Shown here piece after piece: positions 13,609 through 40,554 of a DNA stretch of 64,000 nucleotides. The notes beneath the pieces were generated by a model, which worked only from the letters and a program-made list of their open reading frames with translations, made no database searches and had not been told where the DNA came from. Origin of the DNA: Acidobacteriota bacterium (lineage in GTDB: Bacteria > Acidobacteriota > CAIWXX01); assembly GCA_040755995.1 (NCBI GenBank), contig JBFMAF010000038.1, forward strand, positions 1,593 through 65,592, read 5' to 3'. Each line of letters begins with the position of its first letter. Position 1 is the stretch's first letter. Made by a program: the position numbers and the translations under genes.

Positions 13609-13773
13609 CCGTCGGCCGGTTCGTCGCGCCCGCGCGACCCCCGTGCTTGCGGCGATGTCTAGGGTCCGTCTCCAAGCGCTTGATCAGAAGCAGCCGCATT
13701 CGAATCGGGCAACCTGCTTCACGGCACCGTCTATGGGCACGCGACTTGCATCCCGAGAGACAGGAGGCAAGCT

Positions 13774-14325
13774 TTGAGCAAGGTTGCGGTCACGCAATGG
13801 CTGGGTCGAGTGGCTCCGGTATTCGACACCGCTCGCCAGGTTCTGGTGGTCAATGTGCAAGACGGCTCGGCGGGCTCGCGTCAGGAAGAGGAGTTGCCGG
13901 ATGGAGGGCCCAGCCGCCGGATCCAGGCGCTCTGCGTCCTCGGGATCGACACGCTGATCTGCGGCGCCATATCGAGGCCACTCGCCGGGATGCTCCGCTC
14001 GTGCGGCATCTCGATCATTCCATTCGTGGCCGGATCGGTCGAGGAGATCCTGAAGGCCTACATCTCCGGGAGACTTCCGTCGCCACGGTTCGCCATGCCG
14101 GGATGTGCACAGGGGATACGACTTGGCGGCCGTGGGCCGGGCGGCCAGTGCGTCTGCCCAAGATGCGGTCACCGGGAGCTGCATCGGAGGGGCAGGCCGT
14201 GCAGTGGAGAGGCCTGTCCGGCGTGTGGGTCACAAATGATCAGAGAGGGAGGCCCCTCTCGCGGGAAAGGAGGAGTACCATGGCAGGACCAGCCAGCGAA
14301 GGGTTCGCGGAATGGGCAAGAATGA
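13774..14325 (+). CDS. NifX/NifB-type dinitrogenase FeMo-cofactor-binding domain (PF02579-like) protein with a fused C-terminal Cys4 zinc ribbon (CVCPRCGHRE...CSGEACPACG). TTG start.
   Basis: 'VAVTQWLGRVAPVFDTAR..LVVNVQDG....ICGAISRPL..GISIIPFVAGSVEEILKAY' matches the NifX/NafY fold signature. Zn ribbon homologous to the separate small protein at 18301-18519. RBS GACAGGAGG. Confidence 0.7.
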   Translation: MSKVAVTQWLGRVAPVFDTARQVLVVNVQDGSAGSRQEEELPDGGPSRRIQALCVLGIDTLICGAISRPLAGMLRSCGISIIPFVAGSVEEILKAYISGRLPSPRFAMPGCAQGIRLGGRGPGGQCVCPRCGHRELHRRGRPCSGEACPACGSQMIREGGPSRGKGGVPWQDQPAKGSRNGQE

Positions 14326-14621
14326 GCGGCCGTGGAGCCGGCTACTGCGGAGGAGCCGGCGCCGGAGGTTCTGCTGGGCGGGGCTCGCGCGTGCGGCACA
14401 CCCCAGGGCACGGCTGGCGCCACGTCTTCCGGACATCCTGGATTCCGGGATGGATGCGGTTCGGGCAGGAGTGGGAACCACTCTCGCCGGCCGGCCGCAC
14501 CGAGCTCACCCATGAGTCGGAGAAGGAGTACCTGCAGCAGGAGATCAGCGCACTCCAGGACCAGCTCGATATCGCCAAGAGACGCCTGGAAGAGCTCTCT
14601 GCTGCCGATCAGAAGAAGTGA
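14280..14621 (+). CDS. DUF5320-family protein (Gly/Arg-rich N-terminus 'MAGP...GRGAGYCGG', W-rich middle 'WRHVFRTSWIPGWMRFG', C-terminal coiled coil)
   Basis: RBS AAGGAGGAG. Paralog of 18550-18924. Lies in the C-terminal part of the longer track ORF 13647-14621, whose N-terminal part is considered spurious. Confidence 0.65.
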   Translation: MAGPASEGFAEWARMSGRGAGYCGGAGAGGSAGRGSRVRHTPGHGWRHVFRTSWIPGWMRFGQEWEPLSPAGRTELTHESEKEYLQQEISALQDQLDIAKRRLEELSAADQKK

Positions 14622-15041
14622 TGAAAGACTGAAGGCGAGGTGCCCGGGCATTCGCGAGTCCATAGGGGTGAGATGCGCCCGCGTCGAGCGGCACGTCCTC
14701 TCGCGAATGTCGATGCCTCACTGCGTCCGGTCTCCCACGAAGGGGGGCGCTGCGCGCAGGAGGCTCGGAGAACCCGAGCGGATCTCTTCATCGCGTCTCC
14801 CTGCCACGACGTATCACTGTCTACTACGATGGGGCGCCGCCACCCCGTCCGCTCCACCCCAACAAGTGGTCGGGGGACCGGGTCGATTGTCGACCCGCGC
14901 GGCGCATCTCGGGGAGGGCCGGTGAGCTGCGCTCCTCCGGTCTCACCGTCCCTCCCCATTCTTTTCGGGCCCTCGGAGCGGGCGTACCGGCTCGCACACC
15001 GCCCGTGCGACCGGCTATAATCGCCGCGAGGTGACGGAGGG

Positions 15042-15980
15042 GTGAGGTCGCGAATCGGAGTCGAAGCGGCGTTGGGCGCTCTCTGGTCAGTCTGGCTCGC
15101 CACCGCGGGATGTTGTGGTGGTGCGCCTCTCATCGTCGACACGGACATGGCCCTGGACGACGTACGGGCCATCGCCCTGCTCTCCAGTTCCAGGACCCTG
15201 GCCATCATTGCCGTCGTCACGTCTGACGGCTCGTCCGGCGCTCGAGCCGGATACGAGAGTGCAGTGAGGGTACTCCGGGCGCTGGGACTCGATCGTGTCC
15301 CGATCGGGATGGGCCCGTCGCTGGACGCGCCTCCACCCCCCTGGCGCGGGCTCTCCGAGGCGCTCGGATGGTCAGCCATCGTGTCATCGGGCCCCGGCAC
15401 ACAGCCTGCACAGCGCGAGCCGCCGGCGGACGCCGTCTCTGTGATTGCCGGCGCATTGCGCGACTCAGCCGCGCCCGTTGACTACGTCTGTCTGGGACCG
15501 TTGACCAACCTCGCACAGCTGATTCATGAGAAGCCGGAGCTGGCGACTCGAATCGCGAGAGTCCTGTATGTCGGATCGACGAGGCCCGATCCGACTCCGG
15601 GTTGGAACACGCTTCGCGACCCGTCCAGCACCGATCGGGTCTTCGGCGCCGACATCGCGATCTGCGCGTTCGACATGGATGATCCGGATGTGCTCAGATT
15701 CGATTCCGGCCTGTGGCAGGAGGTAGGGCACGTCGAATCAGCCGCAGCGCAGCTGATCTATGGCCTGCATCGCGACAGTCGCGTCCAGGCGCTGCTGAGG
15801 GAGCGGCACTTCCGAGCGTGGGATGAGACAGTCCCCCTCTACCTGCACGACCCTGCCATCGCGCATCCTGAACCGTTCCCTGGCCGGCCGCGGGGGATCA
15901 GGATCGGTGCCGTCGACGTCGATGCCGCACGAAACGCCTACTTGGCGATCCTGAAACAGCGTCGATCGGGACGGCCATGA
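15042..15980 (+). CDS. Inosine-uridine-preferring nucleoside hydrolase family protein
   Basis: N-terminal 'LIVDTDMALDDVRAIALL' (DxDxxxDD motif of IU_nuc_hydro). Confidence 0.7.
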   Translation: MRSRIGVEAALGALWSVWLATAGCCGGAPLIVDTDMALDDVRAIALLSSSRTLAIIAVVTSDGSSGARAGYESAVRVLRALGLDRVPIGMGPSLDAPPPPWRGLSEALGWSAIVSSGPGTQPAQREPPADAVSVIAGALRDSAAPVDYVCLGPLTNLAQLIHEKPELATRIARVLYVGSTRPDPTPGWNTLRDPSSTDRVFGADIAICAFDMDDPDVLRFDSGLWQEVGHVESAAAQLIYGLHRDSRVQALLRERHFRAWDETVPLYLHDPAIAHPEPFPGRPRGIRIGAVDVDAARNAYLAILKQRRSGRP

Positions 15981-16137
15981 TCGCCCGAAAGGCTTCGGCC
16001 GAGCCCGCATCGACCAGCACGTGCGACCACAACCGTGCGTCTGACCGGCTTTCCGCGCGTTCGCAGTGCGGCAGCCGGGGTTTCGTTTGAGCCGTTGCTT
16101 CGCACACGACCTGTGCCATTAAGCAAGGAGATACCAC

Positions 16138-17403
16138 ATGGAAGCGTCCAATCGACCTGAGTACTTGAGGAAGCACTTCTATCTGGATTGCGGATTCGCC
16201 ACGCGTGCCCTGCACGCCGGCGAGCACATCGGGCAACCGCATTTCACGAATCACACCAACGCCATCTTTCAAACATCGACATTCACATTCGAGACGGCAA
16301 AGGACGGTGCGGACCTGTTCGCCGCTCGGAAGGAGGGCTTCGTCTACACGCGCATGGGCAACCCGACGGTGCTCGTGCTCGAAGCGAAGCTCGCGGCCCT
16401 CGAAGGCTGCTCGTACAAGCTGGCGCACCCCGAGAAGACCGTGTCGTGCATCGCGTTTTCCTCGGGGATGGCCGCCATCTCCTCCACGATGATGGCCATG
16501 CTGCGCCCCGGCGACACCTTGATCGCCGGGCAGGTTCTCTATGGTGCCACGGAGGATTTCTTCCGGACCGTGCTGCAGCCGCTCGGGATACGCTGGGTGC
16601 CGATCGAGACATCGGACCTGGACCTTGTGGAGGCCGCGTTGCGCGAGCACGAGCGCGCACGTGCCGTCTACTTCGAGACGCCGACCAATCCCTTGATGGG
16701 GGTCACCGACATCCGGGCGCTATCGAATCTCGTGCGCAGCGTCAGGCCCGACTGCCACATTGTCGTGGACAACACGTTCGCTACGCCGTTCCTGCAGAGA
16801 CCGCTGGAGCTCGGCGCAGACGTGGTGCTGCATTCCACGACCAAGTACATCTGCGGGCACGGTACCGTGATCGGTGGAGCCGTCATCACGGTGGACGACC
16901 AGGTGCGCGCGCACCTCTACCACATGATGAAAGACTTCGGCGGCTGCCCGTCGCCGTTTGATGCGTGGCTCGTGAACACGGGCTTGAAGACACTGCCCCT
17001 GCGAATGCGCCAGCATTGCGCCAACGCCCAGGGCATCGCCGAGTTCCTCGAGCGGCACCCGAAGGTGGATCGCGTCTTCTACCCGGGGCTGCCCTCCTCG
17101 CCACAGCACGATCTCGCGAAGAGGCAAATGAGCGGGTTCGGGGGTATTCTGTCCTTTGAACTCAATGGCGGCTACGGGGCTGCCGAGAAGGTCATGAACG
17201 GCGTGCGGCTGTTCACGCTGGCCGTCTCCCTGGGCTGCGTCGATTCGCTGATCCAGCATCCGGCCTCCATGACCCACGCCATGATTCCGCGTGAAGAGCG
17301 AGAGCGCAGCGGCATCTCCGATGGGCTGCTTCGTCTCTCGGTCGGGGCCGAGGATCTGAACGACCTGCTGGGCGACCTCGAGAGCGCGCTCGGCGGCGCG
17401 TAG
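16138..17403 (+). CDS. PLP-dependent Cys/Met-metabolism enzyme, methionine gamma-lyase / O-acetylhomoserine sulfhydrylase family
   Basis: '...[16 protein letters not shown]...' and the PLP-lysine region '[16 protein letters not shown]'. 421 aa, RBS AAGGAGA. Confidence 0.85.
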
Positions 17404-17674
17404 CGAAGACCGGTCAACACCGGGCTCCCATTGATGGGGGAGGCGGCGCGGCATGGAAGGAGGTGACACGATGGCTCTGCGCTATCACCATACCTGATTC
17501 AGTGCGGGCGGAATGCACGGGATGCATTGGCTGTCCGGAGCTGCTGCGCCGTGCGTGCCACCTGCCGGCAGCGTCACCGCCTGTCTTCTCCGTTGTTGAT
17601 CGCCCTCCAGACGCCGCCGAACGAGGCCTCGACGTGCGCAGCCCAAACACCAACCGACAACGAAGGACTGTGGC

Positions 17675-18025
17675 ATGGCTGATCCCTCAAGCGTCGTCTT
17701 CGTCTTCAACTCCTACGGCATGGGCCATACCGAGAATGCCGATCTCAAGCTCGTCCTGGCCAAGAAGGCCCTGACGATTCTGGCGACCATGGAACCGCCG
17801 CCTCGGCGAATCTGCTTCTACGCAGACGGTGTCAAGCTCTGCGTGAGAGGTTCGCCCGTACTGGGCGAGCTCCACGCCCTGATGCGCCTCGGTGTCGAGC
17901 TATTGCTGTGCTCGACCTGCATCGAGGCGCTCGGCCTGAAGGATCACGTGGCCGTCGGGACAGTCGGCGGCATGGACCAGATGATCACGACCATGGTGAG
18001 CGGCAGTCACGTCGTCACACTGTGA
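17675..18025 (+). CDS. DsrE/DsrF(TusD)-like small sulfur-relay-fold protein (tentative)
   Basis: 116 aa. 'VVFVFNSYGMGH', '...LLLCSTCIEALGL...' with conserved Cys, similar to DsrE/DsrF-like proteins. First gene of the long + strand cluster. Confidence 0.45.
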   Translation: MADPSSVVFVFNSYGMGHTENADLKLVLAKKALTILATMEPPPRRICFYADGVKLCVRGSPVLGELHALMRLGVELLLCSTCIEALGLKDHVAVGTVGGMDQMITTMVSGSHVVTL

Positions 18026-18300
18026 CGGCGCGGCATGCAGTAGCGGAAACGCGACCCATCGAGTCGGCATCAGTAGCCTCAGGGCGACAGGGGTCGACCC
18101 TTGTTCGAAGGCCGAATGTCACTAGAACCAGGTTGATCAGACGACTAGCGGTCCTTGGAACCCAGCCCAAAGCCGCTGGCATCGGCTTTGCAAGAGAACG
18201 GGTGGGAGATGAAAGGCGGGCACAGTCGCATGTGTGAGATACGCGATCGTGGCATCAAACGCCGGCGGTGTGCCACGCCGATTCGACAGGAGGAACGATC

Positions 18301-18519
18301 ATGATTGGAAGAAGAGGAAGCAGAGAGGGTGGCCGCCGCGCGGGCGGGCAGGGCCGGGGCGGTCGGGGTCTCGGCCGGATGGGCGGAGCTTTCGCAGCCG
18401 GCCCAGGCGGCAACTGCGTCTGCCAGCAGTGCGGCCATCGCGAGTCACATCAACGCGGAGTGCCCTGCACCGGACGGATGTGTCCCAAGTGCGGCACAGC
18501 CATGACAAGAGAACCATGA
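18301..18519 (+). CDS. Small Gly/Arg-rich protein with a Cys4 zinc ribbon (CVCQQCGHRE...CTGRMCPKCG)
   Basis: RBS CAGGAGG. Zn ribbon homologous to the C-terminal fusion on the 13774-14325 protein. Confidence 0.5.
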   Translation: MIGRRGSREGGRRAGGQGRGGRGLGRMGGAFAAGPGGNCVCQQCGHRESHQRGVPCTGRMCPKCGTAMTREP

Positions 18520-18549
18520 CGACATAGCGATGACAAGGAGAACAACATC

Positions 18550-18924
18550 ATGCCAAGAGGTGACAGAACGGGGCCCGTGGGGATGGGTCCGATGACGGGG
18601 CGCGCTGCAGGGTACTGCGCGGGGCTCGGTGTGCCCGGCTATTCGAATCCCGCTCCCGGACGGATGTTCCGGGCGGGAGTCGGAATGGGCGGAGGAGGAC
18701 TGGGCCGCGGGTTCGGCGGCGGTGGTCGCGGATGGCGACACTGGTTCCACGCCACTGGTCTGCCCGGTTGGATGCGATTCGGTGGGTGGGCGGCACCCTA
18801 CGCGAAGCCTGACCGCGAATCGGAGAGGCGCACACTGCGGAATGAAGCACAGGCCTTGAAGGCCACCCTGGACTCGATCCAGAGTCGACTCTCCGAGCTG
18901 GAGGCCGGTCCAGACAAGCCGTGA
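18550..18924 (+). CDS. DUF5320-family protein (MPRGDRTGPVGMGPMTGRAAGYCAG..., WRHWFHATGLPGWMRFGG, coiled-coil C-terminus)
   Basis: RBS AAGGAGAA. The N-terminal 'MPRGD.TGP.GMGPMTGR..GYC' is the hallmark of DUF5320. Paralog of 14280-14621. Confidence 0.7.
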   Translation: MPRGDRTGPVGMGPMTGRAAGYCAGLGVPGYSNPAPGRMFRAGVGMGGGGLGRGFGGGGRGWRHWFHATGLPGWMRFGGWAAPYAKPDRESERRTLRNEAQALKATLDSIQSRLSELEAGPDKP

Positions 18925-18995
18925 ACCCGTGGAGAGGAATCCGTACCGGTGACTCTGACCACCAGTCCGAAGCAAGACGCTGCGGGGAGGATACG

Positions 18996-19358
18996 ATGAA
19001 GATTGCCTTCAGTACGTCGGGGCAGACCCTCGATGCCCCTCTGGACGGGCGTTTCGGCCGGGCGCCGAGGTTCCTCGTGTACGACGTCGAGCGTGCCGAT
19101 TTCAAGATCGTCGACAACACACAGGCATTCGATGCGATGCAAGGAGCAGGCGTCCAGGCGGCGGAGACAGTCACACGTGCAGGGGCGGGCTGCGTTGTGA
19201 CGGGGCACTGCGGGCCGAAGGCCTTCCGGGTCCTCTCTGCTGCCGGCATCGAGGTCTACACGACCGGCGCAGCCAGCGTGGCCGAGGCCCTGGAGCTCTT
19301 CCGCTCTGGGAAGCTCGTGCCCGCCACGGGTCCGGACGTGGATGGGCACTGGGCATGA
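18996..19358 (+). CDS. NifX/NifB-type dinitrogenase FeMo-cofactor-binding domain protein
   Basis: 'MKIAFSTSG..LDAPLDGRFGRAPRFLVYDVE...GAGCVVTGHCGPKAFRVLSAAGIEVYT' is a textbook NifX-like signature. Start chosen at the internal ATG with RBS GGGGAGG. Confidence 0.8.
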   Translation: MKIAFSTSGQTLDAPLDGRFGRAPRFLVYDVERADFKIVDNTQAFDAMQGAGVQAAETVTRAGAGCVVTGHCGPKAFRVLSAAGIEVYTTGAASVAEALELFRSGKLVPATGPDVDGHWA

Positions 19359-19882
19359 GGGCGACCGACCGAACTCTTCGGAGCGTCACTTACAAGCCGA
19401 TCGGCACAGTGCGGAGCGAGCATCGAGATCCCGAGCGGACGCCGATCCAGCCGACCCATGCGAGAGGTTGCAGGGGCCGCCTGCAGATTCGCCCGGAGGT
19501 GGCCGCAGGACTGAAGGACCTGGACGGTTTCTCTCACATCCTGCTGATCTACCACCTTCACAAGGCAGGCGGGCCGATGCTGACGGTGAGGCCGTTCATG
19601 GACGAGGCTGAAAGAGGTGTCTTTGCGACGAGGCATCCACGGCGCCCGAACGCCATCGGCATCAGCGTCGTGCGGCTTGTTCGGATCGAAGGTGAGACTT
19701 TGTACGTCGACGATCTGGACATTCTCGACGGCACGCCACTGCTCGACATCAAACCCTTCGTCCGCAGGTTCGACACGGTCGGGACCTCCCGTGACGGATG
19801 GGCGGGGCGGGTGGATGAGAGGACGGCCAGGCTGAGGGGTCGCAGAGGTTGTCGAAGGAGCCGGTCATCGGACCGGCGTTGA
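19355..19882 (+). CDS. TsaA/TrmO (YaeB, UPF0066) family tRNA-methyltransferase-like protein
   Basis: 'GFSHILLIYHLHK', 'GVFATRHPRRPNAIGISVVRLVRIEGETLYVDDLDILDGTPLLDIKPF'. ATG overlaps the upstream stop (ATGA). Confidence 0.75.
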   Translation: MRATDRTLRSVTYKPIGTVRSEHRDPERTPIQPTHARGCRGRLQIRPEVAAGLKDLDGFSHILLIYHLHKAGGPMLTVRPFMDEAERGVFATRHPRRPNAIGISVVRLVRIEGETLYVDDLDILDGTPLLDIKPFVRRFDTVGTSRDGWAGRVDERTARLRGRRGCRRSRSSDRR

Positions 19883-19887
19883 CGACG

Positions 19888-20766
19888 ATGAGCAAGAAAT
19901 TCGTCATCGCGGTTGCCTCGGGAAAGGGCGGGACGGGCAAGACGACCGTGGCTGTCAATCTTGCCCGTGTGCTGCCGGACCCGGTGCAGCTGATGGACTG
20001 CGACGTCGAGGAGCCGAACTGCCATCTGTTCCTGGACGGGGCGACCAGGGGCCAGGAGGAGGTCCATATCCCAGTGCCCGCAGTTGACGAGTCGCTCTGC
20101 GATGCCTGCGGCGAATGCAGCCGGATTTGCCAGTACCATGCCATCGTGTCGCTCAAGACCAAGCCTCTCCTGTTCCACGACCTCTGCCACGGATGTGGCG
20201 GATGTGCACGGGTCTGCCCTCCAGGTGCGATCCGCGAAGTGGGCCACCGCATCGGGGTCATCGAGACGTCGACGTCGGATCGCATCACCCTGATCCAGGG
20301 GCGGCTGGACGTCGGTGTCCCAACTGCCCCGCCGTTGATCCGCGCCGTGAGGGACCGTCGCCGGGACGACATGCCTGCCATTCTGGATGCGCCGCCCGGA
20401 ACCTCGTGCCCGGTCATCACGACCGTCAGAGACTCGGACTTCGTGCTGCTTGTCGCCGAGCCGACCCCGTTCGGATTGCACGACCTGGAGCTGGCGATCG
20501 AGCTTGTGCGGCAGCTGCGGATACCGTTCGGAGTCATGGTCAATCGTGCGGGGTCTGGAGACGAACGCGTTCGCACGCTCTGCCAAGACGAAGGAATCGA
20601 GATACTGCTGGAAGTGCCGGAAGATCGTAGAGTCGCCGAGAGCTGCTCGAGAGGCGAGATCCTGGTGGATGTGCTGCCGGAGTACCGGCGGCTCTTCGTG
20701 CGGCTGCTGGAGACGGTCCTGGAGCGGTGCAACCGGGCAGAAGGAGCCAGACATGCCCACGTATGA
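19888..20766 (+). CDS. MinD/ParA-superfamily P-loop ATPase with inserted 4Fe-4S dicluster ferredoxin domain
   Basis: Deviant Walker A 'SGKGGTGKTT'. Two CxxCxxCxxxCP motifs (CDACGECSRICQYHAI; CHGCGGCARVCPPGAI). Confidence 0.8.
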   Translation: MSKKFVIAVASGKGGTGKTTVAVNLARVLPDPVQLMDCDVEEPNCHLFLDGATRGQEEVHIPVPAVDESLCDACGECSRICQYHAIVSLKTKPLLFHDLCHGCGGCARVCPPGAIREVGHRIGVIETSTSDRITLIQGRLDVGVPTAPPLIRAVRDRRRDDMPAILDAPPGTSCPVITTVRDSDFVLLVAEPTPFGLHDLELAIELVRQLRIPFGVMVNRAGSGDERVRTLCQDEGIEILLEVPEDRRVAESCSRGEILVDVLPEYRRLFVRLLETVLERCNRAEGARHAHV

Positions 20767-21016
20767 GTATGAGTGCGGGAGATGCGGTCACAGGTTCGAG
20801 CGCATGCAGTCAATCACCGATGCGCCTCTCGAACGATGCCCCGAGTGCGACGGAGAGATCCGGCGCCTGGTGAGCGGCGGGGCCGGGTTCATCATCAAGG
20901 GGGGCGAGGCGGGTCGCCCCGGTTCTCACGCAGGCGACTGCGCTATCGAGCAGCGCGGGCAGACCTGCTGCGGCCGTGAGGAGCGGTGCGACAAGCCGCC
21001 GTGCGGGGGCAGATGA
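20753..21016 (+). CDS. FmdB-family zinc-ribbon small protein with Cys-rich C-terminal tail
   Basis: 'MPTYEYECGRCGHRFE...CPECDG' is the FmdB (CxxC..CxxC) signature. Tail '...GDCAIEQRGQTCCGREERCDKPPCGG'. RBS GAAGGAG. Confidence 0.7.
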   Translation: MPTYEYECGRCGHRFERMQSITDAPLERCPECDGEIRRLVSGGAGFIIKGGEAGRPGSHAGDCAIEQRGQTCCGREERCDKPPCGGR

Positions 21017-21969
21017 TCACACAGCATGCGGCCGGGCACGTCTACGGTCCCGTCTCTTCACGACGTCTGGGCAGATCCCTTGGCGTGGACCTGGTCCCCT
21101 TCAAGACCTGCACGTATGATTGTGTCTACTGCCAGTTGGGCCGCACCACAGACAAGACGACGGTTCGTACCGAATACGTGCCGGCCGATATGGTGTTCGA
21201 TGAGCTGCAGGCAAAATTGGCGACCACGAAGGCTGTCGACCATGTGACAATCGCCGGTTCCGGCGAGCCGACATTGAACTCCCGGGTGGGCGATCTCGTC
21301 ACAAGGATCAAGGCCCTCACGAGCATCCCGCTGGCCGTCCTGACAAACGGATCGCTCCTGTGGATCCGCGACGTGCAAGACGCACTCATGGACGCAGACC
21401 TGGTCCTCCCCTCGCTCGACGCCGGCGACGAGAACCTCTTCAGGTACGTGAACCGACCGCACAGCGACATTCGCTTCGCGACGATGGTCGATGGCCTCGT
21501 GCAATTCAGGGAGCGCTTCTCCGGACGTCTCTGGCTCGAGGTGTTCCTGCTCGGAGGGGTCACGGGAATCCGCCCGGAGGTCGAGAGGATCGCGGCGCTT
21601 GTGCAGCGGATTCGACCTGAGCGAGTCCAGCTCAACTCCGTCTCTCGGCCTCCATGCGAGGATTTCGCCTTCCCCGTGCCTGCAAGACAGATGGAGGGGT
21701 TCGCAGATCTGTTCGAAGTAGGTGCTGAAGTCGTCTGCGTCGAAAGAGGCGAAGGGGAAGGTGAGATTGTGGAGGCGAGTTCGGTGACCGACGAGGCGAT
21801 CCTGGCCCTGCTGAAGAGACGGCCGTGCACCGCCAGAGGGGTCGCTAGGGGGCTCGGCATCCATCTCAGCGATGCGACCAAACGATTGCACCGGCTGGCG
21901 CAGCAGACCGAGGTCAGACTGCTCCGCAGGCACAGGAGACTCTTCTACTGGGTCGACAACACACCATGA
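21013..21969 (+). CDS. Radical SAM protein (CTYDCVYC). ATG at 21013 overlapping the FmdB stop is preferred; the track ORF starts at 20986.
   Basis: 'YGPVSSRRLGRSLGVDLVPFKTCTYDCVYCQLG' is a CxxxCxxC core with the upstream GPV.SRRLG motif seen in small COG0731-type radical SAM enzymes. Confidence 0.8.
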   Translation: MITQHAAGHVYGPVSSRRLGRSLGVDLVPFKTCTYDCVYCQLGRTTDKTTVRTEYVPADMVFDELQAKLATTKAVDHVTIAGSGEPTLNSRVGDLVTRIKALTSIPLAVLTNGSLLWIRDVQDALMDADLVLPSLDAGDENLFRYVNRPHSDIRFATMVDGLVQFRERFSGRLWLEVFLLGGVTGIRPEVERIAALVQRIRPERVQLNSVSRPPCEDFAFPVPARQMEGFADLFEVGAEVVCVERGEGEGEIVEASSVTDEAILALLKRRPCTARGVARGLGIHLSDATKRLHRLAQQTEVRLLRRHRRLFYWVDNTP

Positions 21970-22898
21970 CCAGAGAGCTTGTCGTCGTGAGCGGCAAAGG
22001 CGGAACAGGGAAGACGAGCCTCGCCGCGTCCTTCGCGGCCCTGGCGCGCCGTCCGGTGATCGCGGACTGCGATGTCGATGCGGCGGACCTGCATCTGGTT
22101 CTGACACCGCGAGTCGTCGAACGGCACGAGTTCTGGAGCGGCCACGAGGCCGTGGTCCGAACGGCGGACTGCACACTCTGCGGTGCCTGTCTCGGGGACT
22201 GCGGCTATGGAGCGATCAGGATGGAAAACCAGCAGGACGGCAGGGCGACCTTCTCGGTGGATCCTCTGTCGTGCGAGGGGTGCGGTGTCTGCGTGCGATT
22301 CTGCCCGGCACAGGCGATGGATTTCCGCGAGAGATTGTGCGGCGAGTGGATGGTGTCGGAAACCCGCTGCGGACCGATGGTCCACGCACAGTTGGGGATC
22401 GCCGCCGAGAACTCCGGCAAGCTCGTCTCGACCGTCCGGCGCGCGGCGCGCCGCATCGCCGAGGACAACGGTCATCCCCTGGTCATCGTCGATGGGCCGC
22501 CGGGGATCGGATGCCCGGTCATTGCGTCGATCACCGGCGCGGATGCCGTGCTGGTGGTCACCGAGCCCACACGGTCCGGAGAACACGATCTTCGACGAGT
22601 AATCGAGCTGTCTCGTCACTTTCAGATCCCCTCGTGGGTGTGCGTGAACAAGAGCGACATCAATCCTGAGCTGACGGTGCGAATCGAGGCGGAGGCACGG
22701 AGCATGGGATGTGAGGTCGCCGGGCGGATTCCCTGGGATCCGTCCGTCACCGGCGCCCAGCTCGCAGGCGCCTCCGTGGTCGAGTACGGCAACGGACCCG
22801 CCGCCAGCGGCATCCGGAGCATCTGGGAGAGGCTGGAGCATGTCGTTCTGCTCGGAGCCCCTGGTGAAAGGAAACTCGCTGCGGCGGCGGAATCTTGA
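21966..22898 (+). CDS. Second MinD/ParA-type P-loop ATPase with 4Fe-4S dicluster domain
   Basis: 'SGKGGTGKTS'. 'CTLCGACLGDCGYGAI' and 'CEGCGVCVRFCPAQAM'. ATG overlaps the radical-SAM stop. Confidence 0.8.
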   Translation: MTRELVVVSGKGGTGKTSLAASFAALARRPVIADCDVDAADLHLVLTPRVVERHEFWSGHEAVVRTADCTLCGACLGDCGYGAIRMENQQDGRATFSVDPLSCEGCGVCVRFCPAQAMDFRERLCGEWMVSETRCGPMVHAQLGIAAENSGKLVSTVRRAARRIAEDNGHPLVIVDGPPGIGCPVIASITGADAVLVVTEPTRSGEHDLRRVIELSRHFQIPSWVCVNKSDINPELTVRIEAEARSMGCEVAGRIPWDPSVTGAQLAGASVVEYGNGPAASGIRSIWERLEHVVLLGAPGERKLAAAAES

Positions 22899-24069
22899 TG
22901 CCGTCGAGGAGGATGTGCGACGCTGCCTTCACCGGGACCTGCGCCATTTCTGGTTCATCTGCTCGGAGCTGAACAACCTCGGCCGCGAATTCGCCCTCGT
23001 CCTGGCGGAGCGGATGCTGCGGATGAACGAGCAACGCGGCTCCGACCGGTTCACGTGGAAGTCGTACATGTTGCCGCGCTCGTTCTCGCAGAGCGATTTC
23101 GATCTCCTCTACAGATCGGGGTTCGTCACGACGTGGAATCCGGTCGAGTCGTTCGATGACGCCCAGCTCGCCCTGTCGCGCTCGCCCTACAGCGCGCGCG
23201 ACGCGTCGCTCTTCCTGGGGCGCGACTTTCGCGCGAGAAGGAAGCACGGTCGCTTGCCGCCATTGCCTGTGTCTATCTTCCTGGGCGACCAGCACCTGAC
23301 CCCGGAGTCGCTCTCGCGTTGCGTCCAGCGCTTCAACCGCGAGCGCCTCTGGAGAGTCTGCGGCGGCGCAGTGGCAGTCCACGCCCTTCGCGTCTGGGAC
23401 TTCGAATCCCAGGGCGTACCGGAAGGGGAGGCGGTCACGTTCGCTCCCGAGGGGACTGGACGCCTCGATCTCGCCCACCCAACGTATCACTTTCCGGCGG
23501 AACTGCTGCGCGACTTCGGCAGCCGCGAGGCCGTGATGGTCCTCCACGATCGTCTCCTCTCGACGTTCTTCTCGCATGGGCACCGGAATCGGCCGGAGTG
23601 GTGCCGGTTCCTGGCTCGACACGCATCGCCCACCACACTGCATCGGGAATTGCTGCGCATCGGAAGCGAGGCCGTGCTCAAGGATCCTTCCGTCGAAACG
23701 CTTCGCGATCTCATGACGCCGTCACGCGACAACGAGGCGAGCTGCGAGGCCGTGGCAGAGCGCCTGCTCGGACTGCTCCGGCGGGCGTATCGACGGGACC
23801 TCGAGCGGATCTACCGGTTCCTGGAGATTCCCTCCGACCGGCGGGGGAGGATTGCGATCGACGAGTACGACCTGCACGAAATTCTTTATCGGAAGTTCGA
23901 GACCACGGAAGGGCTCCTAGCCGCCGTGAAACGGCGGTTCCGCCAGCGAACCGGCTCGACGCTCCTCCTGCTGTTTCGTTCAGAGCTCCATCGCCGAAAC
24001 GTCCTGCTGGACCCGCTGCACAGGAAATGGATCTTCCGGCATCTCGACCGACCAGGTTCATCGATATGA
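22840..24069 (+). CDS. Hypothetical protein resembling the post-Cys-motif half of a B12-binding radical SAM enzyme, but lacking the B12 domain and the CxxxCxxC triad
   Basis: 'SLRRRNLDAVEEDVRRCLHRDLRHFWFICSELNN' aligns by eye with 'RKTRYHSVERVLDEIEYVSRKGLRRFWFADPSF' of the bona fide B12-rSAM at 46048-47352. The start overlaps the MinD gene end. Weak call. Confidence 0.35.
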   Translation: MSFCSEPLVKGNSLRRRNLDAVEEDVRRCLHRDLRHFWFICSELNNLGREFALVLAERMLRMNEQRGSDRFTWKSYMLPRSFSQSDFDLLYRSGFVTTWNPVESFDDAQLALSRSPYSARDASLFLGRDFRARRKHGRLPPLPVSIFLGDQHLTPESLSRCVQRFNRERLWRVCGGAVAVHALRVWDFESQGVPEGEAVTFAPEGTGRLDLAHPTYHFPAELLRDFGSREAVMVLHDRLLSTFFSHGHRNRPEWCRFLARHASPTTLHRELLRIGSEAVLKDPSVETLRDLMTPSRDNEASCEAVAERLLGLLRRAYRRDLERIYRFLEIPSDRRGRIAIDEYDLHEILYRKFETTEGLLAAVKRRFRQRTGSTLLLLFRSELHRRNVLLDPLHRKWIFRHLDRPGSSI

Positions 24070-24752
24070 CGACACACGCCATCATCGGAGGAATGGGGCC
24101 GCTCGCCTCGGCCGCGTTCCTACAAACCATCTACGAAAATCACGGCTGGGATCGCGAGCAGGAGCTGCCGGATATCCTGCTCCATTCGCTTTCCTCGGTC
24201 CCCGACCGCACTTCCACCTTGCTGTCCGGGCGGGACGATCTCCTCCTCGAACGCCTGCGGTGCGCGCTGCGGCAGGTCAACCTGCTTGATCCCGCATCGA
24301 TCGTGATCTGCTGCGTGACGTCTCATCATCTCCTCGACCGCCTGCCGGAGGAGATTCTGCCGAAGATCATCTCGCTCACCGACACGGCGCTGAAGACCGT
24401 TGCGGCGAAAGGCGAGCGCGCACTTCTCCTGGCCACCCGCGCCACCTATGAGCTGCGCGTCTTCGAACGGAGCCGGCACTACGCGGCGGCCGCGCCGCTG
24501 ATCGTGACACCCGAGCCGGCGGATCAGGAGCGCGTGCACGCGATGATCTATGACGATCTCAAGAAAGGCCGGCGGATCGCAGAAACAGCCGACGCACTTG
24601 CGGCCATGACCGCGCGGTACGGAGTCGGCGCGTTCATCGCCGGCTGCACCGAATTCCATCTGGTGACGCGTCATCTCCGGAAGAACCGCGTGGCGACGCC
24701 TTCCTTTATCGATCCGCTGATGACGATCGCTGACAAGGAGATGAGGGCATGA
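24066..24752 (+). CDS. Asp/Glu/hydantoin racemase family protein (aspartate racemase-like)
   Basis: 'IGGMGPLASAAF', 'CCVTSHH', 'AGCTEFHL' are the two catalytic-Cys motifs of the family. ATG in frame inside the long track ORF. Confidence 0.7.
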   Translation: MTTHAIIGGMGPLASAAFLQTIYENHGWDREQELPDILLHSLSSVPDRTSTLLSGRDDLLLERLRCALRQVNLLDPASIVICCVTSHHLLDRLPEEILPKIISLTDTALKTVAAKGERALLLATRATYELRVFERSRHYAAAAPLIVTPEPADQERVHAMIYDDLKKGRRIAETADALAAMTARYGVGAFIAGCTEFHLVTRHLRKNRVATPSFIDPLMTIADKEMRA

Positions 24753-26605
24753 GTCCGGCTTACTCGAACGCCACTCTGCGGGAGAGGATCGTCGAGCTCG
24801 TCGGGGACGTCTCGGGGCTCAGTCCCTCCTCGATCGATCCAAACGCCAACTTCTTCAGCCTCGGACTGAACTCCCTGATGTTCATGCAAATCCGGGACCG
24901 GATCGAGAGGGAGCTCGGCGTCGAGCTTGCGGTGAGCCAGTTCACTAACGATGTCTCAACGCTGGTGAAGCTGACCGGATACCTGGAGGAGCGGCTCGCA
25001 CTCGTTCCTTCCTCCGAATCTCAGCCGCCGCCAGTTCCGGATCGCTCCGATCAGACCGGACGGACTGGGGAGACTTCCCTCGACCTTTCATCACTCTCGG
25101 GGCTCGATACGCTCTTTCGCCGCCAGCTCGATGTACTGGAGCGGCAGAACGAGATCCTGCTCTCCGCCTTCCTCAACGGCGGCGGTGCGGCCCCCGCTCC
25201 GTCCCGCCCCGCGCCGGCTCCCCCCGGGAAGGCCTACGTTCCCTTCAAGGCGATCGTGACGTCGCGTTCCTCCGGCGTTGCCCAGGAGCATGTCGAAGCA
25301 CTCGCGCGGCTCCTGGGCGAGAAGTGCAAGTCGACGAAGGACCTTACCCAGAAGCATCGTCGCGTCTTCGGCAATAATCGCGCCATCGCCGGGTTCCGGC
25401 CAGATTGGAAGGAGATGGTCTATCCGCTCATCGCCGCCCGTGCGGACGGCTCGCGGATCTGGGATCCTGACGGGAACGAATACATCGACCTCACTATGGG
25501 CTTCGGCGTGGCGCTCTTCGGCCACAACCCCGCGTTCGTGATGGAGGCGATCCGGGCGGAGCTCGCAAACGGCATGCCACTCGGCCCGCTCTCGCCGCTG
25601 GCGGGGGAGGTTGCGGAGCTCATCGCCGAGCTTACCGGAGTCGAGCGCGTGGCCTTCTTCAACTCGGGTACCGAGGCCGTGATGGTGGCACTCAGGCTCG
25701 CCCGGACTGTGACTGGCCGCGCCAGGGTCGCGATCTTCTCGGGTTCCTTTCATGGAAGCTTCGACGGCATACTTGCGATCCGCGGCGCGGGCGGCAGGAC
25801 GCTGCCCATGCTGCCGGGCAGTCCCGCGGGCATCGTCGCCGATGTCATCGTTCTCGACTACGACGATCCGGCCTCGCTGGATTACGTGGCGGCGCACGGC
25901 GGGGAGCTGGCAGCGGTCCTCGTCGAACCGGTGCAGAGCCGTCATGTCGAGATCCAGCCGCGCGACTTCCTGCACCGGCTCAGGGAGCTGACCGCCGCGT
26001 CCGGAACCGCGCTGATCTTCGACGAGGTCATCACTGGCTTCCGGATCCATCCGGGCGGCGCGCAGGCCAGGTTCGACGTGCGCGCTGACATCGTAACCTA
26101 CGGCAAGATCATCGGCGGCGGGCTTCCGATTGGGATCGTGGCCGGTCGCGCCGAATTCATCGACGCGGTGGACGGAGGGATGTGGCAATACGGCGACGAA
26201 TCCTATCCCGCGAAGAAGAACACCTTCGTGTCTGGGACCTTCTGCCACCATCCCCTCGCGATGGCCGCCGCGCGCGCCGTGCTTCTTCACCTCAGGAGAG
26301 AGGGCCCGAAGCTCCAGGAGGACCTGAATCAGCGCACCGCGGCGTTCGTGACCCGCATGGCCGATCTGTTCAGGGACAGGAGCTGGCCGATCCGCATCGC
26401 CTGCTTCGGCTCGCTCTTCAGGATGGATCTCATGCCGGATCACGAGCTCCTCTACTACCACCTGCTTGACAAGGGCGTCTATGTCTGGGAGGGCCGCAAC
26501 TGCTTCCTCTCGACCGCGCATTCAGACGGCGACATCGAAGCGATCGAAACGGCGATCCGCGCATCCGCGGAGGCCATCGAGCGGGCCGGGCTCTTCCACC
26601 ACTGA
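24749..26605 (+). CDS. Fusion of an N-terminal acyl/peptidyl carrier protein domain to a class-III (glutamate-1-semialdehyde aminomutase-like) PLP aminotransferase
   Basis: N-terminus 'FFSLGLNSLMFMQIRDRIE' (PP-binding, Asn instead of the usual Asp before the Ser). Body 'FNSGTEAVMVALRLAR', 'FDEVITGFR', 'YGKIIGGGLPIG' (PLP-Lys region). ATG overlaps the racemase stop. Confidence 0.8.
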   Translation: MSPAYSNATLRERIVELVGDVSGLSPSSIDPNANFFSLGLNSLMFMQIRDRIERELGVELAVSQFTNDVSTLVKLTGYLEERLALVPSSESQPPPVPDRSDQTGRTGETSLDLSSLSGLDTLFRRQLDVLERQNEILLSAFLNGGGAAPAPSRPAPAPPGKAYVPFKAIVTSRSSGVAQEHVEALARLLGEKCKSTKDLTQKHRRVFGNNRAIAGFRPDWKEMVYPLIAARADGSRIWDPDGNEYIDLTMGFGVALFGHNPAFVMEAIRAELANGMPLGPLSPLAGEVAELIAELTGVERVAFFNSGTEAVMVALRLARTVTGRARVAIFSGSFHGSFDGILAIRGAGGRTLPMLPGSPAGIVADVIVLDYDDPASLDYVAAHGGELAAVLVEPVQSRHVEIQPRDFLHRLRELTAASGTALIFDEVITGFRIHPGGAQARFDVRADIVTYGKIIGGGLPIGIVAGRAEFIDAVDGGMWQYGDESYPAKKNTFVSGTFCHHPLAMAAARAVLLHLRREGPKLQEDLNQRTAAFVTRMADLFRDRSWPIRIACFGSLFRMDLMPDHELLYYHLLDKGVYVWEGRNCFLSTAHSDGDIEAIETAIRASAEAIERAGLFHH

Positions 26606-39211: not shown

Positions 39212-40261
39212 CTACCGATCCTTCTTGGGATCGTGCTTCCGATTCTCGGCGCCTTTGGGCGCGGCCTTCTGCTTCTTCACGGCCGGTTTCGAGGCCACGT
39301 TCGAAGGCTTGCCTCCGTGCTTCGCCTCTATCTTCGTCTGAGTCGGCGCCTGGGCCCGCTGTGGCTGCGTGGGCGTCCGCACTACGCCTTCGTGACCGCC
39401 GCCACGAGAGTCCACCCGAGGCTTGGCCGTCGCGGGGGCCGACTGGTGCATCGGTCGATGCTCAGGCTCGTCCTTGCGAGGCGCGGCTGACTTCTGCACC
39501 TTGTCGTGGTCGTCGGTTCGCCGTACGACCGGAGCCGATGCGGGCTTCCGCGCAATCATGGAAGCCTGCTTCAGCACGACCGCCTCGTGGGCCTGCGGAA
39601 CGACCATCTTGACACGACGGCCGTCGACCGCCATCTCACGCTGTTTGACGGACTGAACCGGAATCGATCGGCGGGTCACGCGTTCCATCACGTCTCGCCT
39701 CGGCGCCGACGAGGTGAACTGGACCGTCTTCCGCACCAACAGGTTCTGAACGACGGCCGGCTGGGCGCTGTACGCGCCGTAGTCGTTGTATGTGAACCGG
39801 TCCGCACCGACGAACACCCAGAGGCTCGCCCGAGCTGGGCTGTAGCCGTAGGCTCGTGCGACGTGGCTGGGGCACCAACCGACGTAGCCGTCGCCATACG
39901 ACCAGACTACATCGGCGGGCTGCCATTCATAGCCCGGAACCCAGACCCACCCAAACGCATCGGTGAAGACCCAGTCACCGTAGTGGTAGACGGACCAGCC
40001 CCACGGCTCGTTGGAAACCCAGGTAGGTCCGTACGAAGTGTACACCCAGTGGCCGTAGAGATACGGTCGCCATCCAACGCGCGTCGCCGCATACGGCCGC
40101 CAGCACCTTCCACGGGACGCCACTTCGAGCCAGGTGCCGTAAGGAGCCAGCGTCTCGTGGTAGCCGAACGAGAAACTGAAGGAGACGCCGGCTGGAGCCA
40201 GGCTCCCGCTGCCGAACAGCAGAGTCGACAGCGTCAGTAGAGTTGCGATCTTGAGTTTCAT
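39212..40261 (-). CDS. Secreted hypothetical protein with Trp/Tyr/Gly-rich repeats (WxPYxxGxWVxT...) and a Lys/Ala/Pro-rich basic tail
   Basis: Signal peptide MKLKIATLLTLSTLLFGSGSLA (start moved to this Met). Repetitive aromatic-rich core. Confidence 0.45.
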   Translation of the reverse strand: MKLKIATLLTLSTLLFGSGSLAPAGVSFSFSFGYHETLAPYGTWLEVASRGRCWRPYAATRVGWRPYLYGHWVYTSYGPTWVSNEPWGWSVYHYGDWVFTDAFGWVWVPGYEWQPADVVWSYGDGYVGWCPSHVARAYGYSPARASLWVFVGADRFTYNDYGAYSAQPAVVQNLLVRKTVQFTSSAPRRDVMERVTRRSIPVQSVKQREMAVDGRRVKMVVPQAHEAVVLKQASMIARKPASAPVVRRTDDHDKVQKSAAPRKDEPEHRPMHQSAPATAKPRVDSRGGGHEGVVRTPTQPQRAQAPTQTKIEAKHGGKPSNVASKPAVKKQKAAPKGAENRKHDPKKDR

Positions 40262-40554
40262 GTCTAAAACCTCCTCGTACACCGTTCAGTCATCAGGATG
40301 TGCAAGCGAGGTGCCAGGTCGACGGTGAGCGGCTTCAAGCACTTACCCGCCGCTCGCCACTTGACGCGGCGTCCTCTGTGAAGGACAGCAGCGGCTCGGG
40401 CCCATCTAACGGACAGAGAACACAGGCCGAGCCCCCGTCCAACGGTGGGGACAGTCGCTGCTGGATTTGCCACATCCTGCGTCGTGTCGCCGTACGTCCC
40501 GGCTCATGCCGGGGCGTCGCTGTGGGCCACATCACCGCTTCGATGCGCTGCGAA

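Follow-up and report, generated by a model that had tools for sequence, protein, structure and literature searches.

A 64-kb stretch of DNA from an Acidobacteriota bacterium (64,000 nucleotides of contig JBFMAF010000038.1, hereafter the window) contains two neighbouring gene groups in which NifX-like domains are combined with a small cysteine-rich ribbon domain and with proteins of the DUF5320 family. On balance, we favour a joint reading in which this region belongs to a metal-sulfur cluster system of the orange-protein (ORP) type in an anaerobic bacterium and comprises two transcription units driven by sigma54, and in which the ribbon and DUF5320 would be accessory subunits of NifX-like cluster carriers; the evidence tips only modestly in its favour. 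We place the region in an ORP-type system because the NifX-like protein of the second group best matches ORP, because two ATPases resembling Orp3 and Orp4 are encoded with it, and because sigma54 motifs precede the gene groups and OrpR-like activators adjoin related loci. As the ribbon, DUF5320 and NifX-like proteins are repeatedly fused to one another in other genomes, it is very probable from the sequences that they work as one unit.

Two gene groups with different NifX-like domains

The original prediction, made from the letters of the window, described one three-part module occurring twice, once as an open reading frame (ORF) joining a NifX-like domain to the ribbon and followed by DUF5320 (module 1), and once as a free ribbon gene followed by DUF5320 and a NifX-like gene (module 2). 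Both gene groups are real: all of the named ORFs are present on the + strand (Table 1), each has a Shine-Dalgarno sequence 5-10 nt ahead of its start, and Pfam searches confirmed the domains. However, the two modules, the second of which starts ~4 kb downstream of the first, are not equivalent, as their NifX-like genes are different paralogs. The two domains, which we call NifXA (module 1) and NifXB (module 2), barely align pairwise (E 0.033). Nor is module 2 the split form of module 1 that it had been taken for, since the gene at 18996 encodes this different paralog, whose best sequence match in the PDB is, over its full length, 2wfb, the ORP of Desulfovibrio gigas (E 1.8e-19). That NifXA and NifXB hardly align, and that a NifXA~ribbon fusion and NifXB coexist inside single operons in other genomes, argues that module 2 is the canonical operon minus the NifXA part of its first gene. 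Judged by gene content, it is a widespread operon whose first gene has lost the NifXA domain carried in most other genomes, a layout also seen in loci L036 and L043, and module 1 (13774-14621) is a diverged extra copy of only the first two genes of the canonical operon, in fused form and with a very short linker.

Pairwise alignment bears out the predicted homology of the shared parts. The ribbons align without a gap over 33 residues, 64% of which are identical (E 2e-14), and the two DUF5320 proteins are 33% identical (E 1e-12); a six-frame motif scan of the 64 kb revealed no third ribbon. A recent tandem duplication of the module was rejected, as the DUF5320 copies are 33-38% identical to each other and the second copy is 63-67% identical to orthologs in other phyla. 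When DUF5320 and NifXB of module 2 are taken together, the corresponding range is 63-69%. No other DUF5320 found is more than 41% identical to that of module 1, which has lost the MPRGDGTGP motif in its overlapped N-terminus. As to the two-module layout elsewhere, a metagenome scan for close relatives of the fusion gave a best match that was only 49% identical.

Known since 2011, the ORP complex is widespread in anaerobes and needed under strongly reducing conditions. The type of cluster considered here is itself already known, and the fused proteins are present in databases under the generic name "NifB/NifX family". Unit 2 spans 18301-22898 and consists of the ribbon, DUF5320, NifXB, a TrmO-like protein, an Orp3/Orp4-like ATPase, an FmdB ribbon, a radical S-adenosylmethionine (SAM) protein and a second Orp3/Orp4-like ATPase; a MinD/Fer4 model found no further copy in the window beyond these two ATPases. 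In Desulfovibrio vulgaris, Orp3 and Orp4 are MinD-like ATPases with two [4Fe-4S] ferredoxin motifs and Orp8 is an ORP homolog, and ORP itself holds an anionic Mo/Cu-sulfide cluster non-covalently (PMC6345978). We also considered a nif cluster and rejected it, as the NifX equivalog model TIGR02663, with a cut-off of 112 bits, gives 18996-19358 a score of only 22 bits and does not match the fusion, and no nitrogenase genes lie nearby.

Related loci were surveyed in a set of 80 from a genome scan (ribbons containing CPKCGTAM) and 7 from contig look-ups, all annotated with purpose-built hidden Markov models. They come from Desulfobacterota, Planctomycetota, Acidobacteriota, Chloroflexota, Firmicutes, Actinomycetota, Bacteroidota, Nitrospirota, KSB1 and WOR-3, and they share a recurrent operon in the order PAS-sigma54 activator, NifXA~ribbon, DUF5320, NifXB, (TrmO or ARMT1-like), MinD/Fer4, (FmdB, radical SAM) and MinD/Fer4. 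NifXA is fused upstream of the ribbon in 26 of the 87 ribbon copies, and in 25 of these 26 DUF5320 follows at once. Directly upstream of the ribbon we also find a separate NifXA (4/87), NifXB (11/87), MinD/Fer4 (7/87), DUF5320 (7/87) and a radical SAM gene (4/87), and directly downstream DUF5320 (36/87) and MinD/Fer4 (14/87). In some of these loci (L106 6395-15858, L020 5158-5616 and L001 11839-12240) the module also has as neighbours genes for DUF134, Zip and ZnuA/ABC-3 metal transporters, peroxiredoxin and a NifU_N scaffold.

The fusion of NifX-like domain and ribbon in one module and their separation in the other had been offered as Rosetta-stone evidence that the parts function together. 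The logic holds, because free ribbons beside an unfused NifXA do occur (L006 and L007) and can be set against the 26 fused copies, but it does not run through module 2 of the window. As fusions of NifXB to DUF5320 are abundant, the coupling argument extends to the third part, DUF5320. One such protein (L020 4256-4852) consists of NifXB, GRGM repeats and a coiled coil (PF02579, E 1.2e-19; PF17253 positions 18-99, E 1.7e-4), and its gene is followed by a free ribbon gene and then a NifU_N gene; its 120 best clusters are all 180-240 residues long, and ~100 contain both Pfam domains. With these fusions, a shared MPRGDGTGP motif and arrays of PDZ, NifX-like and ribbon domains (both described below), the case for functional coupling appears stronger than the original prediction knew.

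Each module probably has its own sigma54-type promoter. When TGGCAC-N5-TTGCW is allowed at most one mismatch, there are 3 sites in the window against 1.3 expected, and two of them precede the first genes of the modules. In related loci the motif, with the same tolerance, is found in the 260 nt ahead of NifXA in 23 of 37 cases, compared with 1.9% of random windows, usually ~54 nt before the start codon, and OrpR-like PAS-sigma54 activators are adjacent in most of them. The candidate sites fit what is known of D. vulgaris, where the orp operons are under the control of sigma54, OrpR and integration host factor and OrpR is redox-sensing (PMC3897727, PMC8359166). A scan for sigma70 promoters and intrinsic terminators yielded nothing useful. 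The sole exact match to the sigma54 consensus in the window, TGGCACCTCGCTTGCA (40301-40316, -), lies just upstream of a DUF6600 gene (39212-40285, -).

Table 1. Features of the two modules and their surroundings (window coordinates, except in the last row)
Feature	Position	Strand	Details
Sigma54-type -24/-12 promoter-like site GGGCACGCGACTTGCA	13735-13750	+	24 nt before the start of the NifXA~ribbon gene
NifXA~ribbon fusion, 183 aa	13774-14325	+	TTG start after AGGAGG; NifX-like domain, 14-residue Gly/Arg linker, Cys6His ribbon, 25-residue extension
Module-1 ribbon core CVCPRCGHRELHRRGRPCSGEACPACG	14149-14229	+	C126-x-C128-xx-C131-G-x4-H137-xx-G-x-P-C143-x4-C148-P-x-C151-G
Module-1 DUF5320	14280-14621	+	ATG after AAGGAGG; PF17253 E 1.7e-13, 52.0 bits (cut-off 27); overlaps fusion ORF by 46 nt
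Inosine-uridine nucleoside hydrolase	15042-15980	+	Between the modules
Cys/Met-metabolism pyridoxal phosphate (PLP) enzyme	16138-17403	+	Between the modules
DsrE-like protein	17675-18025	+	Between the modules
Sigma54-type promoter-like site TGGCATCGGCTTTGCA	18177-18192	+	109 nt before the free ribbon gene
Free ribbon gene, 72 aa	18301-18519	+	ATG after AGGAGG; disordered Gly/Arg arm, then ribbon core (18415-18495)
Canonical DUF5320	18550-18924	+	ATG after AAGGAG; PF17253 E 4.5e-24, 85.9 bits (cut-off 27); MPRGDRTGP.. motif, Gly/Arg/Trp-rich middle, C-terminal helix
NifXB, orange-protein (ORP/Orp8) homolog, 120 aa	18996-19358	+	ATG after GGGAGGA; PF02579 E 4.6e-23, 81.8 bits (cut-off 26.3)
TrmO_N-domain protein	19355-19882	+	PF01980 E 5e-39; same operon; same position in L011 and L036
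MinD/ParA-type ATPase with inserted 2x[4Fe-4S] ferredoxin domain (Orp3/Orp4-like)	19849-20766	+	CbiA/ParA and Fer4 domains
FmdB-type Zn_ribbon_8 protein	20753-21016	+	PF09723 E 3.9e-17
Radical SAM protein	20986-21969	+	PF04055 E 1.1e-13; weak matches to metal-cofactor maturases
Second MinD/ParA-type ATPase with ferredoxin insert (Orp3/Orp4-like)	21966-22898	+	CbiA/ParA and Fer4 domains
Asp/Glu racemase-domain ORF, then ORF with phosphopantetheine-binding domain joined to class-III aminotransferase	23160-26605	+	Directly past the operon
Internal Shine-Dalgarno/ATG examples in related loci	L008 4903-4925; L031 4840-4862; L034 4867-4889; L052 2198-2220		Long-linker fusion genes

The stretch between the modules (15042-18025, +) holds three genes unrelated to them; the PLP enzyme and the DsrE-like protein among these suggest a link to sulfur metabolism.

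The Cys6His ribbon, its fusion to NifXA, and DUF5320

In an alignment of 224 sequences the ribbon has the fixed spacing C0-x-C2-xx-C5-G-x4-H11-xx-G14-x-P16-C17-x4-C22-P-x-C25-G-xx-M-x-R, and C0, C2, C5, H11, C17, C22 and C25 are each conserved at 99-100%. The spacing of the motif proposed earlier, CxCxxCGHRExHxRG.., is thus constant, but its first His (position 7) is only 58% conserved. Two CPxCG knuckles provide four of the seven invariant candidate ligands, and the three extra ones are C0, H11 and C17 (C126, H137 and C143 in module 1). By sequence, the domain is a double CPxCG knuckle with a constant length of 33 residues and seven invariant putative metal ligands (6 Cys and 1 His), three more than a plain zinc ribbon would need. 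Across phyla the ribbon core keeps 60-75% identity, 648 clusters at 90% identity match the free ribbon protein, and a profile search (E up to 1e-3) retrieved at least 2,245 ribbon representatives at 50% identity. No model in Pfam or NCBIfam, zinc-ribbon models included, reaches threshold on the ribbon. AlphaFold models of the fusion and of the free protein both predict two short beta hairpins for the ribbon (pLDDT, the predicted local confidence score, 80-94 across both models); in the free protein residues 1-35 are predicted to be disordered and the ribbon has pLDDT 82-89. The Foldseek neighbours of the ribbon are all knuckles of the zinc-ribbon/rubredoxin type (Rpb12, the HypA Zn domain, desulforedoxin, MCM and the adenylate kinase lid), none of them significant (best E 0.34).

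The fusion itself is not in doubt. PF02579 (Nitro_FeMo-Co) matches residues 12-97 of its product (E 2.5e-9, 37.8 bits against a gathering cut-off of 26.3), and the ORF is uninterrupted between this domain and the ribbon, so that the hidden stop for which the original prediction had asked a check is absent. The recurrence survey that it had also proposed found the ribbon in the same polypeptide in 103 of the 120 best homolog clusters, in which fused homologs are typically ~200 residues long. A frameshift or hidden stop behind the fusion was rejected on the continuity of the ORF and the conservation of the architecture among homologs. In this family the NifX-like part, with invariant cysteines C63 and C111, ends in an invariant FAMPGC(C) and is followed by a linker (median 55 residues, 35% Gly and 17% Arg), the ribbon and a stop right after ..M-x-R-E. 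The 14-residue linker of the window fusion, a protein with an isoelectric point (pI) of 9.4 and 10 Cys, is among the shortest. Its ORF continues for 25 codons beyond the usual ribbon end ..MIRE (14230-14325) and so overlaps DUF5320; because P0122, which is 75% identical, carries the same C-terminal tail, this is not a sequencing slip, and short-linker relatives in Holophagales have the normal stop after the ribbon. The publicly annotated P0121 (171 aa, NCBI) is 99% identical to the fusion and starts 12 codons later. The TTG start at 13774 has a good ribosome-binding site, and the additional stretch (13774-13809) restores the conserved N-terminal residues K3, A5 and W9. In one Terriglobia metagenome-assembled genome (MAG), the NifXA part of the fusion gene is split over two frames (L027 4440-4830), through either a frameshift or an assembly error.

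AlphaFold (58-sequence alignment) modelled residues 1-105 of the fusion with pLDDT of 95 and above, the linker below 50 and the ribbon at 80-94. The N-terminal domain is predicted to have the ribonuclease-H-like alpha/beta fold of NifX-type domains: Foldseek matched it to PH0822, TM1816, MJ0327, TM1290, NifX, NafY, ORP and MTH1175, the PDB entries being 2yx6 (E 3.4e-9) and also 1o13, 2qtd, 1rdu, 9ian, 1p90, 2wfb and 1eo1.

The ribbon is further tied to DUF5320 through its N-terminus. Among free ribbons, 66 of 120 start with MPxGDxTG, the N-terminal motif of DUF5320, and the free-ribbon N-terminus aligns with positions 1-44 of the PF17253 profile. In the literature, DUF5320 receives passing mentions only, one in each of two papers. 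Operons of Aminicenantes (L019 5131-5307 and 7504-7650; also L037, L044 and L057) encode up to four small paralogs with an MPxxDGTGP..G.C N-terminus, which differ at the C-terminus (a Gln/Gly/Arg-rich 60-mer, coiled-coil variants).

Ribbons also occur in arrays. In P0241, P0247, P0248, P0249, P0252 and P0273 (600-1516 residues), a membrane anchor at the N-terminus and a pair of PDZ domains are combined with 1-4 PF02579 domains and 2-5 ribbons separated by Pro/Gly-rich repeats, and in the array ribbons inspected (P0241, P0248 and P0249) all seven ligand positions are intact. P0278 and P0284 have a phage XkdF-type prohead protease domain (PF14550) with a ribbon-like domain after it.

Long-linker fusion genes have an additional feature. 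In 20 of 23 there is an in-frame ATG 32-56 codons before the first ribbon Cys, with AAGGAGG or CAGGAGG 5-10 nt ahead of it, compared with a background of 2.9% for ATGs inside the other genes of these loci. Over this site the nucleotide sequence is retained although the encoded residues differ (K/Q-E-E/G/V/A), the pattern is visible at the protein level in 76 of 84 long linkers, and the distance from the internal Met to the ribbon equals the length of the free-ribbon N-terminal arm (36.5 and 38 residues). Retention of a ribosome-binding site and ATG argues that the fusions arose by stop-codon loss, and the long-linker genes may, by internal initiation, yield the free ribbon as well, giving two products from one gene. 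The window fusion has lost the internal start site, and the window has a separate ribbon gene. We rejected the notion that every short-linker fusion has a free ribbon gene close by, as L106, L107 and L028 have none within 5-10 kb. We found no description in the literature of the ribbon domain, its tie to the ORP cluster, the reciprocal fusions, the shared N-terminal motif or the internal start.

Candidate mechanism and alternative explanations

The layer of this analysis that is directly supported comprises domain identities, the NifX-like fold, conserved ligand residues, fusions, gene order and promoter motifs; metal binding, physical contacts and the direction of transfer are what we infer from it. 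In the mechanism we propose, the ribbon would be carried on a cationic, disordered Gly/Arg arm, either in cis on a NifX-like domain with two invariant Cys or in trans on an arm with the MPRGDGTGP peptide. By analogy with a proposal made for the IssA tail, the cationic arms would neutralise an anionic metal-sulfur species on the NifX-like domain; the surplus Cys, His and Cys of the ribbon would help to ligate this species, and NifXA would contribute its two invariant Cys. The DUF5320 helix could oligomerise the assembly, and the MinD/ferredoxin ATPases would then act on, or receive, the cluster. In IssA of Pyrococcus furiosus, a PF02579-type domain assembles an anionic iron-sulfur polymer (thioferrate), around which a cationic Gly-rich tail has been proposed to wrap (PMC5524996). 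IssA has been defined by IPR003731 with a C-terminal tail, pI of at least 9, fewer than 5 Cys and at least 20% Gly in the last 40 residues, and IssX by pI of at least 8, fewer than 10 Cys and at least 10% Gly in the last 40 residues (PMC5524996 supplement).

Several observations weigh against our proposal. Physical contact among the parts is an extrapolation from gene fusion and gene order, and AlphaFold places the ribbon on the NifX-like domain without confidence (given the low score of the linker and a pTM, the predicted global score, of 0.60). The 64-kb window contains no OrpR-like (GAFT[GD]A-type) activator gene and no MrpORP (Orp9: Mrp/NBP35 plus NifX-like), none of the partial matches to NF041136 exceeding 48 bits (cut-off 450). 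For the ORP complex itself, neither the physiological cofactor nor the role is settled, and the literature gives only a putative involvement in cell division. With its 10 Cys, the window fusion falls outside the definitions of IssA and IssX in spite of its high pI. Finally, Gly/Arg-rich arms and zinc ribbons are typical of nucleic-acid binders, and fusions of the ribbon to DUF134, a sigma70 region 4-like helix-turn-helix domain, exist (P0095 and P0113).

The main rival to cluster handling is structural docking, in which an ordinary zinc ribbon and a coiled-coil adaptor, DUF5320, would glue the ORP complex together and bind no metal-sulfur cluster. One structural Zn needs only the two CPxCG knuckles, the structural neighbours include generic zinc ribbons (Rpb12, MCM, adenylate kinase lid), and the appearance of the ribbon beside unrelated partners such as DUF134 and the phage XkdF protease would suit a docking module. 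Yet a C4 site leaves unexplained the 99-100% conservation of C0, H11 and C17 in more than 220 sequences, PDZ-NifX arrays among them, and the fusion partner NifXA has an invariant Cys pair of its own; we regard docking alone as rather unlikely. Third in rank, and improbable, are nucleic-acid-binding or regulatory proteins, with RGG-like arms and a zinc ribbon, that would control expression of the cluster and have no part in metal handling. To the Gly/Arg-rich arms and the DUF134 fusions, this explanation can add a weak similarity of the ribbon to ribosomal protein eL37 (E 0.13-0.2), but that similarity is not significant, the dominant fusion partners are NifX-like cluster-binding and not DNA-binding domains, and regulation of the orp operons is already covered by OrpR and sigma54.

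The fusion might also be an artefact of frameshift or read-through, or a neutral by-product of gene adjacency that says nothing about function. In favour of this are the ATG and ribosome-binding site with which a separate ribbon gene once began and which long-linker fusions still hold, and the frameshift inside NifXA in the single MAG mentioned above. We give this very little credence, as the frame is open in the 103 clusters from many phyla and in P0122, the same domains are joined in independent architectures, and the window ORF lacks a stop and is predicted to form two well-folded domains. Small size, a conserved N-terminal motif, a Cys-rich C-terminus and a radical SAM gene in the operon might also recall precursors of ribosomally made peptides modified by the neighbouring enzyme. 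However, the supposed core is, unlike that of such precursors, highly conserved across phyla and fixed in length, it is fused to folded domains, and only 4 of 87 ribbon copies have a radical SAM gene directly upstream; this is the least credible of the explanations, and barely so at all.

Returning to ribbon and DUF5320 as accessory subunits of cluster carriers, we can also sketch a bolder version, which we offer as speculation and hold to be unlikely as a whole. The ribbon, DUF5320 and the short paralogs would be a hitherto unrecognised family of cationic, largely disordered micro-proteins marked by MPRGDGTGP that, with NifX-like domains, form a split bacterial counterpart of IssA or a carrier of another anionic metal-sulfide; the ribbon would be a ligating cap, and most fusion genes would deliberately make both tethered and free ribbon.

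If the favoured reading is correct, three components are added to the ORP system, namely a Cys-bearing NifX paralog, the Cys6His ribbon (at least 2,245 clusters at 50% identity) and DUF5320, tied to it by reciprocal gene fusions over at least 10 phyla. They would be concrete candidates for missing ORP subunits and ligands, with specific residues to mutate (C126, H137 and C143 of the ribbon; C63 and C111 of NifXA). DUF5320 would thereby gain a functional context, and the fusion genes may each encode two products by internal initiation.

Relation to known systems

The closest comparison is with the ORP complex of D. vulgaris Hildenborough (Orp3, Orp4, Orp5, Orp8 and Orp9; OrpR), with which the window shares an ORP homolog and two MinD ATPases with 2x[4Fe-4S] inserts. 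As for the orp operons, there are sigma54 promoter-like motifs, PAS-sigma54 activators are adjacent in related loci, and the system is confined to anaerobes. In contrast, the window operon adds a radical SAM protein, an FmdB ribbon and a TrmO-like protein, and the ribbon, DUF5320 and the NifXA~ribbon fusion are without description in the accessible ORP literature.

NifX, NafY and the C-terminal domain of NifB, which carry FeMo-co and NifB-co, have the same fold as NifXA (Foldseek E 7e-6 to 2e-5 for NifX, 9ian, and NafY, 1p90) and belong to the same Pfam family. NifXA differs from them in its invariant Cys63 and Cys111 and its FAMPGC end; neither NifX-like protein of the window reaches the cut-off of the NifX model, and there are no nitrogenase genes nearby.

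The likeness to IssA (thioferrate storage) and IssX lies in the PF02579/IPR003731 domain, the cationic Gly-rich disordered C-terminal region and the high pI (9.4 for the window fusion). However, the IssA tail is rich in Pro, aromatic residues and Gly and has one Cys, whereas the arm of the window fusion ends in a folded Cys6His ribbon, for 10 Cys in total; moreover, the cationic parts are here often separate proteins.

Finally, the ribbon resembles small CPxCG zinc-finger or ribbon proteins and rubredoxin-like knuckles (HVO_2753, Rpb12, the HypA Zn domain and desulforedoxin) in having two CPxCG knuckles, ~35 residues and two short predicted hairpins. Although it shares these features, it has no significant structural match among them (best E 0.34), and it is set apart by its strictly fixed length and its three additional invariant ligand positions.

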